DNA of 41,798 nucleotides from positions 1 through 41,798 of IMG/VR virus record IMGVR_UViG_2563366805_000010, one strand, 5' to 3'. This document shows positions 16,063 through 41,798 of the stretch, piece by piece. The notes under the pieces were generated by a model. The model did not search any database. It saw only the letters and a program-made list of their open reading frames with translations, and was not told the origin of the DNA. Both the position numbers and the translations under genes were made by a program. Every line of letters starts with the position of its first letter. Positions within the stretch are counted from its first letter, which is position 1. This stretch comes from a virus. Lineage: Duplodnaviria; Heunggongvirae; Uroviricota; Caudoviricetes.

Positions 16063-16137
16063 GGGTCAGAAGCACAGAGGTTGTGAGATCGGCTGTTAAC
16101 CGATTGGTCGAAGGTTCGAATCCTTCCTGTCCCGCCA
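16063..16137 (+). tRNA. tRNA-Asn (anticodon GTT)-like gene
   Basis: Hand-folded cloverleaf: acceptor GGGTCAG/CTGTCCC (one T-T mismatch), D-stem 3 of 4 pairs with GG in loop, anticodon stem ATCGG/CCGAT with loop CTGTTAA, 5-nt variable loop, T-arm GAAGG-TTCGAAT-CCTTC, discriminator G and encoded CCA. Confidence 0.5.
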
Positions 16138-37001: not shown

Positions 37002-38201
37002 ATGGCTTTGAACCTCGACACGCTGGGGCTATCGGCAACGGTAACCGCCCAGGGGATTAGTGCGCCTGATTACCAGACAATCCTAGATACACTGACCAGC
37101 TATTTCAGGCAGATTTACGGTAGTGATGCCTACCTCGAACCAGACAGCAAAGATGGGCAAATGGTCGCGCTGGTGGCTCTTGCGGTGCATGACGCTAACA
37201 ATACCGCTATCGAGATCTACAACTCTTTTTCACCGACGACAGCGCAGGCCGCAGCGCTTAGCAACAATGTGAAAATTAACGGGATCACGCGAAAAGTAGC
37301 GACAAACTCTACTGCTGACCTTCTGTTAACCGGTACGGCAGGCACGACTATCACGAATGGCTCCGCACGGGATAAAAACGGCATTATCTGGAATTTTCCA
37401 GCGAGTGTGGCGATCGGCGTTGATGGTACTGTGCTGGTGACGGCCACATGTGCGAATAGCGGTTCGGTTGCGGCGCTGGCCGGGACTATCACCACCATTA
37501 ACACACCGACTCGCGGATGGGTATCAGTCACCAACCCAGCAGCGGCTACGGTTGGTTCTCCGGCCGAGACAGACGCGGAGCTTCGCATCCGGCAGGGCCA
37601 GAGCGTCGCGCTACCGTCAATCACCCCGTTTGAAGGTGTCGACGGTGCTATTGCTAATGTTAATGGCGTGACACGTCACAAACTGTACGAGAATGACACT
37701 GGCTCGACAGATAGCAACGGGCTGCCGCCTCATTCCATTTCTGCGATTGTTGACGGCGGTGATGTGACAGAAATCGCCCAGACCATCAGGGGGAATAAAG
37801 GGCAGGGAACCGCAACTTACGGTAAAACTTCTGTCACAGTGCCGGATACTTATGGTAATCCTCACGTCATCAGTTTTTCGCGCTCTACCGATGTGCCAAT
37901 TTTCGTAGCCATTACCCTGAAAGTTTTTACCGGCTATACCTCTCAAATCGGCGAGCAGATTAAACAGGCTGTTGCCGATTATATAAATGGCCTGACAATT
38001 GGCGACGACGTTCTGCTGAGCCGTATTTATTCCCCGGCAAACCTCGGCGTTGTGAGCGGCGGGAATGCCCGCTATTACGATATTACCGACCTGCTGATCG
38101 GTAAGTCGTCTGGCAGCGTATCGGCATCAAACATTGATATTGCCTATGATGCTTCTGCGTCCTGTAGCACCGCGAATATCAGTATCACGGTGACCTCATG
38201 A
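37002..38201 (+). CDS. Baseplate J-like protein
   Basis: 399 aa; AETDAELRIRQ and C-terminal beta-rich region typical of the baseplate J family; order as Mu gp47 and e14 jayE. Confidence 0.7.
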   Translation: MALNLDTLGLSATVTAQGISAPDYQTILDTLTSYFRQIYGSDAYLEPDSKDGQMVALVALAVHDANNTAIEIYNSFSPTTAQAAALSNNVKINGITRKVATNSTADLLLTGTAGTTITNGSARDKNGIIWNFPASVAIGVDGTVLVTATCANSGSVAALAGTITTINTPTRGWVSVTNPAAATVGSPAETDAELRIRQGQSVALPSITPFEGVDGAIANVNGVTRHKLYENDTGSTDSNGLPPHSISAIVDGGDVTEIAQTIRGNKGQGTATYGKTSVTVPDTYGNPHVISFSRSTDVPIFVAITLKVFTGYTSQIGEQIKQAVADYINGLTIGDDVLLSRIYSPANLGVVSGGNARYYDITDLLIGKSSGSVSASNIDIAYDASASCSTANISITVTS

Positions 38202-38878
38202 GCAAATACACCGAACTGATCACTAACTACCACGCTACCAAGCCACTCTTTTTTGACCATATAGATCTGAGCACCCGCCCGCTGATTGATGTGTCCAGCA
38301 CTATGTCAGGGCTTATAACAGCCTTCGATATCGATACTGCTGTCGGTGTACAGCTCGACATCCTCGGTCTGTGGATCGGACGCAGTCGCATAGTCAGCCA
38401 GCCAATTAGCGGAGTTTATTTCAGCTGGGACACTGACGGGCTTGGGTATGACCAGGGCATCTGGCAAGGGCCATATGATCCTGATTCTGGCTATACGACG
38501 CTAAGCGATGAGACGTACCGCATCATTCTGAAAGCGAAAATCGCTATCAACAACTGGGACGGTCGGAACGACTCTCTGCCTCCCATCCTTGACGCTGCTA
38601 CCGCAGGCTCAGGCCTGAGGATGCAGATCGTCGACAACCAGGACATGACGATTTCGGTCTGGGTTTTCCCTGAAACTGATATTTCTGATGCGTCTCTCGA
38701 ACTGATCGCCGCTATCAAACAGGGCTATCTCACCGTTAAATCAGCTGGCGTATGGGCCGGTGATGTTGAAACGCCTTCGGTAGAAACACCGTCAGAAGGC
38801 TCTAAATTCTTTGGGTTTGATATGGATAACGAATACATCGGCGGGTTCGATGTTGGAGCATGGGGGACAATACTCTAA
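38198..38878 (+). CDS. Tail protein (Mu gp48 / YmfQ-like, DUF2313)
   Basis: 226 aa directly upstream of tail fibre, as ymfQ in e14. Confidence 0.6.
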   Translation: MSKYTELITNYHATKPLFFDHIDLSTRPLIDVSSTMSGLITAFDIDTAVGVQLDILGLWIGRSRIVSQPISGVYFSWDTDGLGYDQGIWQGPYDPDSGYTTLSDETYRIILKAKIAINNWDGRNDSLPPILDAATAGSGLRMQIVDNQDMTISVWVFPETDISDASLELIAAIKQGYLTVKSAGVWAGDVETPSVETPSEGSKFFGFDMDNEYIGGFDVGAWGTIL

Positions 38879-39819
38879 TGGCAATAAACAACTTTAAACC
38901 TTTCGCGCTTGATCCGAACGCTAACGTCACCTCACAAGCTGACTGGGAAGCACTTCCGGCTCTGCTTTCAGGGTTTACGGCAGGTAAAGCATCCAGCGCA
39001 CAGGTCAACAAAGCTATTCGGCAAGCCAGCTTTATCGCGGCAGCGTTGGCGCAGTACACCGCCAACAAAAGCGGGCTGGATGTGCTTGATGATGGAGACC
39101 TGAACGGGTTTATATCCAAAATGAGGACCGCTTTCGGGAAAGATTTCCAGGCGCTTGATGCCACGCTGTCGGCATTAGCTGGGCTCGCAACAGGTGCAAA
39201 TAAACTCCCATATTTCACTGGAAATGATACAGCAGCGCAGACTGATTTAACTTCTGTTGGCCGTGACATTATTGGGAAAAATACTATTGCTGACATTCTC
39301 ACATACCTTGGTTTAGGAGAAGGCTCAGCATTGCCTGTTGGCGTACCTGTTCCGTGGCCCTCAGCCACTCCGCCAACAGGCTGGCTAAAATGCAACGGAG
39401 CAGCTTTTTCTGCTGAAGAATACCCAGAACTGGCAAAGGCTTACCCGACAAATAAATTGCCTGATTTACGTGGTGAGTTTATTCGTGGCTGGGATGACGG
39501 ACGTGGTATGGATACGGGGAGGGCAATATTATCAGCTCAGGGCGATGCCATACGTAATATCTATGGTGAGTTCAAGACTGTAAACACCGAAAATTATTCA
39601 ATATGGGAATCAGTAGACTCGTTTAAGGGGGCAGTGGTGCCTTTGAATCCCTCAACGAACAATAGTTATTTCTCCTTAATCAGAAGTATGGTGACTGAAA
39701 GAGCAGATGGCGCTGTTTACCCAAAAGTGATTGGCCTTGATGCTTCAAGAATTGTTCCAACTGCAAACGAAAACCGTCCTCGTAACATTGCCTTTAATTA
39801 TATCGTGAGGGCTGCCTGA
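38878..39819 (+). CDS. Tail fibre protein (currently expressed variant)
   Basis: 313 aa; constant N-terminal part, crossover site at codons for ILTYLGLGEG, C-terminal receptor-binding part with PWPSATPPTGW...LPDLRGEFIRGWDDGRG. Confidence 0.8.
   Translation: MAINNFKPFALDPNANVTSQADWEALPALLSGFTAGKASSAQVNKAIRQASFIAAALAQYTANKSGLDVLDDGDLNGFISKMRTAFGKDFQALDATLSALAGLATGANKLPYFTGNDTAAQTDLTSVGRDIIGKNTIADILTYLGLGEGSALPVGVPVPWPSATPPTGWLKCNGAAFSAEEYPELAKAYPTNKLPDLRGEFIRGWDDGRGMDTGRAILSAQGDAIRNIYGEFKTVNTENYSIWESVDSFKGAVVPLNPSTNNSYFSLIRSMVTERADGAVYPKVIGLDASRIVPTANENRPRNIAFNYIVRAA
39296..39321. repeat. Left recombination site of the invertible segment
   Basis: TTCTCACATACC-TT-GGTTTAGGAGAA; its right half matches the reverse complement of the right site 11 of 12. 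Confidence 0.55.
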
Positions 39820-40421
39820 TGAATAAAGCCGTATTAAATAACGAACTCATTGCCACAAAGACGGGAGATATTACCGTTTATAATTATGATGGTGAAACGC
39901 GGGAATATATTTCTACATCAACTGAATATCTTGCTGTTGGCGTCGGTATCCCGGCATGTTCTTGTTTAGATGCGCCAGTTACACATAAAGCTGGTTATGC
40001 TATCTGCCGCTCAGCAGATTTTAACTCATGGGAATATGTGCCAGACCATCGCGGTGAAGTTGTCTATAACACCGAAACGGGAGAATCAAAAGAAATCACA
40101 GCTCCGGGTGATTATCCTGAAAACACGACCACTATCGCCCCGTTAACGCCATACGATAAATGGGATGGTGAGAAATGGGTAACAGATACTGAGGCACAGC
40201 ATAGCGCAGCAGTCGAAGCGGCAGAAGCACAGCGTCAGTCACTGATTGATGCTGCAATGGCTTCCATTAGTCTGATTCAACTGAAATTACAGGCCGGGCG
40301 GAAGCTGACGCAGGCAGAAACAACCCGCCTTAACGCTGTGCTGGATTACATTGACGCGGTGATGGCAACAGATACCAGCACAGCGCCGGATGTCATCTGG
40401 CCTGAACTGCCGGAGGCGTAG
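39819..40421 (+). CDS. Tail fibre assembly protein (Tfa)
   Basis: 200 aa; stop/start coupled to fibre gene; C-terminal [10 protein letters not shown]. Confidence 0.75.
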
Positions 40422-40812
40422 GCCATTCAATATCGAGTGCTGTTGAAGTATTAATACGCATCAATAGCACTCGATATTTTTTCCATGCCAGTAACAGTTT
40501 CGTTTCATCATTTGTTGCCATACCTAAATCAACCGCATCCTGAAGCGGAGCTATTACATTCGTTGCCTCTGCTATCAGTGCAGATTTCTTTTCATCATTT
40601 ATTAAGGCTAATTGTTCTGGTGTTGGAGAAGGACGGTCAACAATGACAGGATGACCGTTCTCACCACAGGTAATCATTTTTGTTACACTCTGTGCATTAA
40701 TCAGTGTTTTCCACTCTGATTCCGAGATTTCCACTGCATCATCAGGAATATTGGTGCCGTGAAATTCAGTCGAATAAAATCCGTTTGTCGATGCAGAATA
40801 AAAATATGACAT
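40393..40812 (-). CDS. Alternative tail fibre assembly protein (Tfa')
   Basis: 139 aa on minus strand; C-terminal DIEWPTPP parallels the plus-strand Tfa; start 5 nt after the minus-strand fibre cassette stop. Confidence 0.6.
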
Positions 40813-40816
40813 TTTG

Positions 40817-41177
40817 TTAATATCCCATTGCAATGTAATACGCATCAGCAGATGAACCGTATCCTGAACCGGGCGATACTGTAATATCAAATCCAGTGTT
40901 ATGGACATTTGTCGCCGATACAGTCGGCTGCCCTGACGCGCCAGTAACGTTCAATGTAACTGTGACAGCAAGGACTCTTGAGAATGTCATCGGGAACCTC
41001 ATCCCGTATATTGAAGATACATTCGGGGAGCCATTCAACTGACCGCACTGTAAAATTAATCCAGACGGAAATTTTTGCGCAGCAGCCGTTGCGGTATTAC
41101 TTGACGCGAACAGGCTCATATCAGGTATCTGATTCGCCCCTGTACCTACATTCCTTTTAGCTGCTTCTCCCAAACCA
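40817..41177 (-). other. Silent alternative tail-fibre C-terminal cassette
   Basis: Minus-strand frame open from the right crossover site (codons for VGLGEAAK) to TAA at 40817; no start codon or SD of its own. Confidence 0.6.
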
Positions 41178-41190
41178 ACCTTTTTTATAA
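41165..41190. repeat. Right recombination site of the invertible segment
   Basis: TTCTCCCAAACC-AA-CCTTTTTTATAA, resembling gix/hix-type sites (memory-based comparison), about 60 bp upstream of the invertase gene. Confidence 0.55.
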
Positions 41191-41220
41191 CCATCAAAAA
41201 TCTGGTGATGCTTCGCCGTT

Positions 41221-41243
41221 TCTCCTGTTTTCATAACAGGAGA
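41221..41243 (+). promoter_or_regulatory. Perfect 9-bp-stem hairpin containing the invertase Shine-Dalgarno
   Basis: TCTCCTGTT-TTCAT-AACAGGAGA; the 3' arm holds AGGAGA located 7 nt upstream of the pin ATG. Confidence 0.35.
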
Positions 41244-41249
41244 AATCCC

Positions 41250-41798
41250 ATGATTTACGGTTATGCCCGAGTATCAACAAACCACCAGGACACTGAATTG
41301 CAACTAACGGCGCTCAAGTCAGCGGGTTGTGAGAAAATTTTTGAAGAGCATGCCAGCGGGAGGAAATCGAATCGGCCGGTTCTAAAACGGCTGATCGCCA
41401 CTATGCAGCCGGGGGATGAACTGGTGGTCTGGAAGCTGGACAGGATAGGCCGCAACGTTCTGCATGCGCTGTTGATGTTCCAGCAGTTACAGGAAAAGGG
41501 TATCAACTTCCGCAGTATTACCGATGGCGTGGATCTCAAAACAGCCAGCGGCCGCTATAACTTTCGTAACATCCTTTCCGCAGCACAATATGAATCTGAT
41601 CTTAATAGCGAACGTACCTTAGCAGGGCTGGCCGTAGCCAGGGCAAAAGGGCGAGTTGGTGGTCGCAGGCCTAAGTTCACGGATGAGCAATGGCGGGAAA
41701 TGGGGGAGCGGATGGCAACCGGTGAATCACGACAAAGCGTATCAAAAACGTATGGAGTAGGGCTCTCAACTCTGTATAAAAAGTTTCCAGCTAGCTGA
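41250..41798 (+). CDS. pin: Serine-recombinase DNA invertase (Pin/Gin/Hin family)
   Basis: MIYGYARVSTNHQD with catalytic Ser, resolvase-type catalytic domain and C-terminal HTH (GESRQSVSKTYGVGLSTLYKK); stop codon is the last triplet of the window. Confidence 0.9.
   Translation: MIYGYARVSTNHQDTELQLTALKSAGCEKIFEEHASGRKSNRPVLKRLIATMQPGDELVVWKLDRIGRNVLHALLMFQQLQEKGINFRSITDGVDLKTASGRYNFRNILSAAQYESDLNSERTLAGLAVARAKGRVGGRRPKFTDEQWREMGERMATGESRQSVSKTYGVGLSTLYKKFPAS

Follow-up and report, generated by a model that had tools for sequence, protein, structure and literature searches.

Near the end of IMG/VR virus record IMGVR_UViG_2563366805_000010 (Duplodnaviria; Heunggongvirae; Uroviricota; Caudoviricetes), a complete tail-fibre gene and its chaperone gene are followed on the opposite strand by a second chaperone gene and a fibre fragment that lacks a start codon, and then by a gene for a serine DNA invertase. 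What could a second, silent fibre tip mean for this prophage? We addressed this question in the full 41,798-nt stretch (positions 1 to 41,798 of the record, hereafter the window). The locus is very probably a two-state switch of host range that operates by site-specific DNA inversion, as in the Mu G, P1 C, and e14 P regions. Systems of this type are well understood, and this one was previously undescribed in this prophage; the possible regulation of its divergent invertase is the only part with some novelty.

The preliminary description of this DNA, made from the letters alone, had placed two 26-bp crossover sites, one in the fibre gene and the other upstream of the invertase, and both proved correct to the base. 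The left site, TTCTCACATACC-TT-GGTTTAGGAGAA, falls within the fibre open reading frame (ORF), over codons I-L-T-Y-L-G-L-G-E, and the right site, TTCTCCCAAACC-AA-CCTTTTTTATAA, lies 60 bp 5' of the invertase ATG (41250). The two sites are in inverted orientation, and each consists of imperfect 12-bp half-sites flanking a 2-bp core. On the plus strand, the central dinucleotides are TT on the left and AA on the right, which pair up in the inverted-repeat alignment of the sites and in no other; they are therefore compatible with inversion only, as a serine recombinase requires. The strict inverted repeat (39308-39322 / 41164-41178) is 15 nt long, with 14 of the 15 positions matching. Its single mismatch is a silent TTA/TTG change, and L-G-L-G-E is thus retained at both junctions.

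Taken alone, a 15-nt repeat is unremarkable, but further evidence excludes chance. The inner half-site with its core, TTCTCCYAAACCAA, occurs twice in the window, on opposite strands, where 0.05 copies were expected. A weight matrix trained solely on sites of other loci (those of e14, EC12, TOK-001, and RSHH22) scored the two sites at 29.9 and 28.1 bits, compared with 10.9 for the next best position in the window and a background of -30 +/- 9. A third crossover site, as in Min-like or shufflon-like multi-inversion systems, was found nowhere across the 41.8 kb, and the switch is therefore a simple two-state one. One look-alike, TGGTGTTGGAGAAGG at 40618-40632, was rejected as a third site, having no partner half-site.

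Between the cores, two convergent cassettes each hold a variable fibre tip and a Tfa chaperone (Table 1). The tfa-A ATG overlaps the fibre stop codon (TGATG), and tfa-A and tfa-B meet tail to tail with a 29-nt overlap. The tips differ in domain family, with Collar in the one and Gp53-like_C, or H-type lectin, in the other. The preliminary description had read the minus strand as a start-less fibre C-terminus (VGLGEAAK) followed by a second Tfa. Both identities were confirmed by domain searches (Gp53-like_C and Caudo_TAP), and the silent C-terminus indeed contains ..VGLGEAAK..; its lack of a start needs qualification, given an in-frame TTG-ATG at 41197-41192 on the minus strand, five codons upstream. 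ORF finders call a 126-aa protein there (40817-41197). This TTG-ATG has no obvious ribosome-binding site, and the product would miss the N-terminal part of the fibre. When we inverted positions 39308-41178 in silico, the constant part was joined in frame to the gp53-like domain, yielding an uninterrupted fibre of 263 aa. Inversion would thus exchange the receptor-binding domain together with its chaperone, as had been proposed, and the natural inversion of homologous segments at 39308 and 41178 bears this out.

Indeed, such inversions are evident among relatives. The yciI locus of E. coli G3/10 is likewise occupied by a prophage, and its invertase is identical. Against this genome, window positions 39308-41178 align to the minus strand (94.4% identity over 1,872 nt) and both flanks to the plus strand, with homology breakpoints at exactly 39308 and 41178, the predicted core dinucleotides. 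Similarly, in WEM25 the constant fibre part is collinear and 98% identical but joined to a gp53-like tip, and the collar tip is silent beside the invertase. EC12 and EC15, isolates from one hospital study, have a P2-like prophage (L004 and L005) that matches at 100% for 4.0 kb to either side of the cassette, and the cassette itself (1,877 bp, 93.6% identical to that of the window) is inverted between them. The adjacent invertase gene of these two is truncated to 201 nt, and the flip was therefore made in trans by another invertase of the genome. Finally, the mouse E. coli isolates RSHH22 and M8 share a dusA-integrated prophage whose flanks are 100% identical; its 1,827-bp cassette, likewise 100% identical, points one way in RSHH22 and the other way in M8. 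Here, the invertase is intact, 79% identical to that of the window with the same helix-E motif, and the right site is of the AA-CCTTT form.

The window invertase is carried by about 146 of 5,426 complete E. coli genomes, where either the gp53-like or the collar tip adjoins it, both arrangements being found. With the window orientation as query, none of the complete E. coli genomes covered at least 80%, and with the in-silico flipped query one did (G3/10). When the TOK-001 prophage was queried in native and flipped form, the flipped form reached at least 80% coverage in no genome. Given the diversity of cassette alleles, orientations could not simply be counted.

Table 1. Features of the switch locus, followed by the genes upstream of it. 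Coordinates are those of the window.
Feature	Coordinates	Strand	Description
Tail-fibre gene, present form	38878..39819	+	313 aa; constant N-terminus and collar-type C-terminus; Pfam Collar PF07484, E=2e-15
Constant fibre part	38878..39307	+	~143 codons; outside the invertible segment
Invertible segment	39308..41178		1,871 bp core to core
Left crossover site	39296-39321	+	26 bp; core TT at 39308-39309
Right crossover site	41165-41190	+	26 bp; core AA at 41177-41178
Variable fibre C-terminus A (collar type)	39308..39819	+	now in use; Pfam Collar
Tfa-A chaperone	39819..40421	+	200 aa; Pfam Caudo_TAP, E=2e-32
Hairpin and U-tract, mid-segment	40429..40482	+	inverted repeat I2, 18 nt, 94%; -35.8 kcal/mol, z=-8.1
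Tfa-B chaperone for the alternative tip	40393..40812	-	139 aa; Pfam Caudo_TAP, E=5e-31
Silent variable fibre C-terminus B	40817..41176	-	start-less; Pfam Gp53-like_C, E=8e-14; weakly H-type lectin
Two invertase-leader hairpins	41204..41246	+	-22.7 kcal/mol, z=-4.6; second (41218-41246) pairs the Shine-Dalgarno AGGAGA (41238-41243)
Serine DNA invertase	41250..41798	+	182 aa, complete; stop is the last codon of the window; Pfam Resolvase, E=4e-39, and HTH_7
Candidate enhancer remnant or other cis element	41271..41288	+	invertase codons 8-13; position of the first Fis site in Hin/Gin enhancers
Spike/gpV-like	35863-36648
W-like	36648-37001
Baseplate_J	37002-38201		upstream of the fibre gene
DUF2612	38198-38878		directly before the fibre gene

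The sequences establish the sites, the frames, the modules, the intact invertase, and the inversion of homologous segments; flipping of this very prophage, its frequency, its receptors, and a role of host Fis are matters of inference, and we propose the following scheme. Late transcription of the baseplate operon would read into the fibre gene with its fixed first ~143 codons and, at the L-G-L-G-E codons, would cross the 26-bp site into the 1.87-kb segment. In the sequenced orientation, the message would continue through the collar-type receptor-binding domain, then Tfa-A, and then a terminator hairpin. Dimers of the 182-aa invertase would bind both sites, synapse them, and cut at the central AA/TT, whereupon one subunit pair would rotate by 180 degrees and leave the segment inverted. 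In the flipped state, the constant N-terminus would lead into the gp53-like receptor-binding domain, followed by Tfa-B, and a population of lysogens would release virions with either of two receptor specificities. The terminator in this scheme is likely the central hairpin (40429-40482), which sits within the 3' end of the tfa-B coding sequence; judging from its predicted fold, it would act as an intrinsic terminator of the plus-strand fibre operon after tfa-A, in the present orientation only. A counterpart of this hairpin is found in the G3/10, EC12, and EC15 cassettes.

Several observations weigh against an active switch. The exact prophage, that of E. coli KTE100, is known from a single assembly and in one orientation, so that its own inversion is something we infer; its 313-aa fibre protein is exactly WP_016243576.1 / EOW08430.1, a singleton. 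The predicted 263-aa product of the flipped fusion was absent from a collection of 15 billion proteins. The outer half-sites depart from the family consensus, with CACATACC on the left, and with CC in place of GG beside the core on the right. Because the EC12/EC15 flip took place in trans, the polymorphisms among relatives are no strict proof that inversion is the work of the adjacent gene product. Further points concern the host factor Fis. In classical systems, the enhancer is a pair of Fis sites spaced by about 48 bp within the 5' portion of the invertase gene, some 100 bp away from the nearer crossover site. In the usual position in the invertase gene of the window, a canonical two-Fis-site enhancer is not recognizable, and at the place of site II the sequence is CAGCGGGTTGTGAGA, which lacks the G and C that flank the site in gin and pinE. 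Contact with Fis is made in Hin by Q151, R154, and L155, described as a conserved feature unique to Fis-dependent invertases (PMC3798978); the equivalents of these DNA-binding-domain residues in the window enzyme are E, E, and R, and vary within its clade.

These points could be taken to mean that the locus is a frozen relic, in which the layout of a switch survives but inversion has ceased owing to degenerate sites, a lost enhancer, or a weak enzyme, leaving the minus-strand cassette as a silent fossil. The single sampled orientation, and the want of a canonical enhancer and of a Fis-contact patch, would fit such a relic. Decay is also common among relatives: phi80 and HK225 keep the invertase and a remnant site, the EC12/EC15 invertase is truncated, and the tfa genes of G3/10 are frameshifted. 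We nevertheless consider a relic improbable. All five ORFs of the locus are intact, and the silent cassette is free of frameshifts and stop codons. Many genomes encode the identical invertase, and its helix-E motif does not vary across genera, pointing to purifying selection, and a same-clade invertase with an AA-CCTTT right site accompanies the very recent RSHH22/M8 flip.

The EC12/EC15 flip, having occurred beside a truncated invertase gene, raises a different alternative, namely that the segment of the window is inverted in trans by another invertase of the host, such as Pin of e14, and that the adjacent gene is dispensable or aimed at another target. Invertases of the Hin/Gin family can substitute for one another, which would permit this, and the inner half-sites are identical to those of the e14 pix sites. 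It is very unlikely, since across other genera the invertase genes of the same clade adjoin a right site with the AAACC-AA-CCTTT motif kept upstream of them, and the window itself has an intact and strongly conserved enzyme 60 bp from its site. A mere chance repeat between two horizontally acquired convergent fibre modules, without any site-specific recombination, would suit the shortness of the repeat (14/15 nt), the many repeats of similar length in the 3-kb region, and the high mosaicism of fibre modules, but is effectively refuted by the motif count, by an independent weight matrix that picks exactly these positions, by the in-frame placement of both sites at the same G-L-G-E motif, and by the breakpoints at the core dinucleotides in inverted relatives.

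An inversion switch needs an enzyme, and the gene adjoining the invertible segment, outside its limits, encodes an intact one. The Gin structures 3UJ3/4M6F align to its residues 1-181 (E=1e-56), Gin being the best structural match, and it has the catalytic motif GYARVS(9)T (Ser9) and DRIGR. The protein is 100% identical to the mEp237 'DNA invertase', is a single residue away from the HK225 enzyme, and represents the full-length form of phi80 PinL; an identical protein is encoded on at least 1000 contigs. A literature search for functional studies of pinL turned up annotations only. Identity to Hin, Gin, and PinE is 46-55%, compared with 65-78% among those three. Across 50,697 phage records, a gap separates the relatives of the window enzyme (at least ~60% identity) from the rest, including P1 Cin and D108 Gin (at most 55%). 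By sequence, the window enzyme thus falls in a separate and less studied branch of the Hin/Gin family, the clade of phi80 PinL type, which is found in Escherichia, Citrobacter, Kluyvera, Trabulsiella, Morganella, Erwinia, and others.

In its regulatory residues, this clade departs from the classical enzymes. In Hin, the regulatory residues of helix E are F104, F105, F106, H107, M109, and L112; F105 and M109 lock the inactive dimer, F105N permits Fis-independent inversion in vivo, F106 is essential, and H107Y is the strongest hyperactivating change (PMC4513852). At these positions, the window enzyme has Y103, N104, F105, R106, I108, and A111, so that of the classical residues only the equivalent of F106 is retained. 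The helix-E segment SGRYNFRNILSAAQYESDLNSERT is invariant in 14 homologues from nine genera that are 62-88% identical overall, and the helix-E motif YNFRNILSAAQYESDLNSERT is the same in all 14. Of the basic residues 47, 48, and 51 of Hin, which belong to the Fis- and enhancer-contact set of Fis-dependent invertases, the window enzyme keeps K46 and R47, and has Ala50 as the third. The Hin sequence used for these comparisons is consistent with the residue numbering of the cited papers (PMC3798978 for the contact residues).

A crude Fis-site score revealed no evident alternative pair of sites at 48-bp spacing in the 5' end of the invertase gene, and it ranked the accepted gin and hin sites poorly; we therefore assessed Fis by comparing homologous positions and the conservation of synonymous sites. 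Codons 8-13, the counterpart of site I, lie about 100 bp from the right core, and their synonymous-codon identity across 14 homologues is 0.80, compared with 0.41 elsewhere (p=0.0003); no such excess is seen at the counterpart of site II. The preliminary description had called the switch complete. That word holds for the sites, the two tip and Tfa cassettes, and the invertase; a Fis-bound enhancer, in contrast, was not identified with confidence. Any dependence of this clade on Fis and an enhancer is therefore putative, and the case for an inversion switch at this locus stands regardless.

Tentatively, and with more doubt than confidence, we suggest that the clade may invert DNA without the classical invertasome of Fis and enhancer, and may be controlled instead by low expression through a hairpin that sequesters the Shine-Dalgarno sequence, possibly with one cis element at codons 8-13. 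The Asn found where Hin has Phe105, a change that renders Hin partly independent of Fis, and the loss of the Fis-contact patch and of the second Fis site, support this reading. If true, the clade would be the natural counterpart of the engineered hyperactive mutants of Hin and Gin. The second leader hairpin, as predicted, probably acts as a translational brake that keeps invertase synthesis, and hence the switching rate, low. The leader hairpins are kept in L010, L011, L012, L019, and L021 among the loci compared; the second is conserved in homologues from Trabulsiella, Kluyvera, Pseudocitrobacter, Shimwellia, and Apirhabdus, and the phi80 annotation labels it only 'IR3'. A promoter scan near the invertase gave nothing beyond shuffled expectation.

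The resemblance to the Mu G, P1 C, and e14 P regions, to which the preliminary description had proposed an alignment, is real in gene order and in logic. The closest layout is that of the e14 P region with Pin (K-12 stfP-tfaP / tfaE-stfE / pinE), which likewise runs from a constant part through a tip with its tfa gene, an inverted tfa gene, and a start-less tip to the invertase. Its segment is also ~1.8 kb long, both pix sites share the inner half-site and core (TTCTCCCAAACC-AA-CGTTTATGAAAA and TTCTCCCAAACC-AA-GGTTTTCGAGAG), and the tfa gene is labelled tfaE in relatives of the window. Unlike in e14, which is defective and has stfE as a pseudogene, the prophage of the window and both of its cassettes look intact; in addition, PinE is 55% identical and the outer half-sites differ. 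The Mu G segment with Gin (S/U vs S'/U') also has the constant part (Sc) outside, the variable part (Sv) and chaperone U inside, and the invertase adjacent on the outside, and in both cases the fibre gene comes after baseplate genes of Mu gp47/gp48 type. However, the Mu segment spans 3 kb between identical gix sites, TTATCCAAAACC-TC-GGTTTACAGGAA, with a TC/GA core, whereas the window has 1.87 kb, AA/TT cores, and imperfect sites. Gin is 52% identical to the window enzyme and depends on the sis enhancer and Fis. The C segment of P1/P7 with Cin, and Min of p15B, similarly combine an invertible tip and chaperone with an adjacent serine invertase, and P1-like plasmid prophages carry the exact Tfa-B of the window beside a Cin-like gene. 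P1 has long inverted repeats (~0.6 kb) and Min has multiple sites, in contrast to just two short sites in the window, and P1 Cin is 52% identical to the window enzyme.

Among closer relatives of the invertase, phi80 (PinL), HK225 (gp30), and mEp237 have the same enzyme (93-99.8% nucleotide identity), the same leader hairpins (IR3), and an invertase gene next to attP or the yciI attachment site. They are siphoviruses with an orphan invertase, a remnant of the right site, and a fragment of a collar-domain gene, whereas the window retains the full substrate. A complete switch of the same architecture is found in Escherichia phage SKA5 and in the dusA prophage of RSHH22/M8, with an invertase of the same clade (79%, identical helix-E motif) and a right site with AA-CCTTT. 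These differ from the window in phage backbone, integration site, and cassette alleles, and their constant region is of YmfQ type, compared with DUF2612 type in the window. In a survey of programmed inversions, 'DUF2612 domain-containing protein' and 'tail fiber assembly protein' were strongly enriched beside inverted genes (PMC9881135).

The crossover sites also delimit homology to unrelated phages. Homology to the fibre genes of HK97, HK106, and P2-like phages starts at 39290-39308, and homology to those of SfI, SfII, SfIV, and SfV stops at 41184. For example, from the crossover site onward, C-terminus A is ~91% identical in nucleotides to the stretch of HK97/HK106 stf that encodes the C-terminus. 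As fibre homology of unrelated phages begins and ends in them, the crossover sites also bound horizontally exchanged modules. The phages with these homology edges have no switch. The exact 139-aa Tfa-B is also encoded in P2-like, P1-like (beside LydB/DarA), Mu-like, and e14-like elements. In loci L028-L037, Tfa-B usually lies beside an invertase other than that of the window. Of the 56 blocks that carry Tfa-B, 38 have it solely on contigs shorter than 2 kb, which would fit assembly breaks at invertible repeats. The constant fibre part is itself mosaic: positions 38883-39299 have no megablast match in TOK-001 (L024), otherwise the closest prophage, whose constant fibre part is ~57 codons shorter.

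As a phase-variation device, the switch would double the receptor range open to the progeny of a lysogen, and it would at the same time provide a docking point for module exchange, the cassette circulating among P1-like, P2-like, Mu-like, and e14-like elements and this lambdoid-regulated prophage of myovirus type. It also accounts for the start-less fibre fragment and for the extra tfa gene, annotated by pipelines as 'phage tail protein' genes in their own right, and it makes assemblies of this region orientation-dependent.

The window constitutes the entire 41.8-kb body of the prophage, opening with the ATG of the integrase gene (1-1194) and closing with the stop codon of the invertase gene. 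Its nearest relative in a complete genome, TOK-001, is 99.98% identical over the first 11.2 kb; the TOK-001 prophage is flanked by kch and yciI, at the attachment site of phi80, and attR is the end that carries the invertase. This prophage pairs genes for lambdoid regulation and lysis with genes for a contractile tail and baseplate, and a tRNA-Asn gene is located at 16063-16137. Between the tail genes, a stretch of ~1 kb (34911-35884) has a G+C content of 0.46, compared with 0.53, and has no counterpart in TOK-001, which carries a DUF4236 gene there. Pfam gave no match for the small ORFs at 34.9-35.7 kb. The stretch may be a moron, and a 136-aa ORF at 34892-35302 has an N-terminus resembling a signal peptide.

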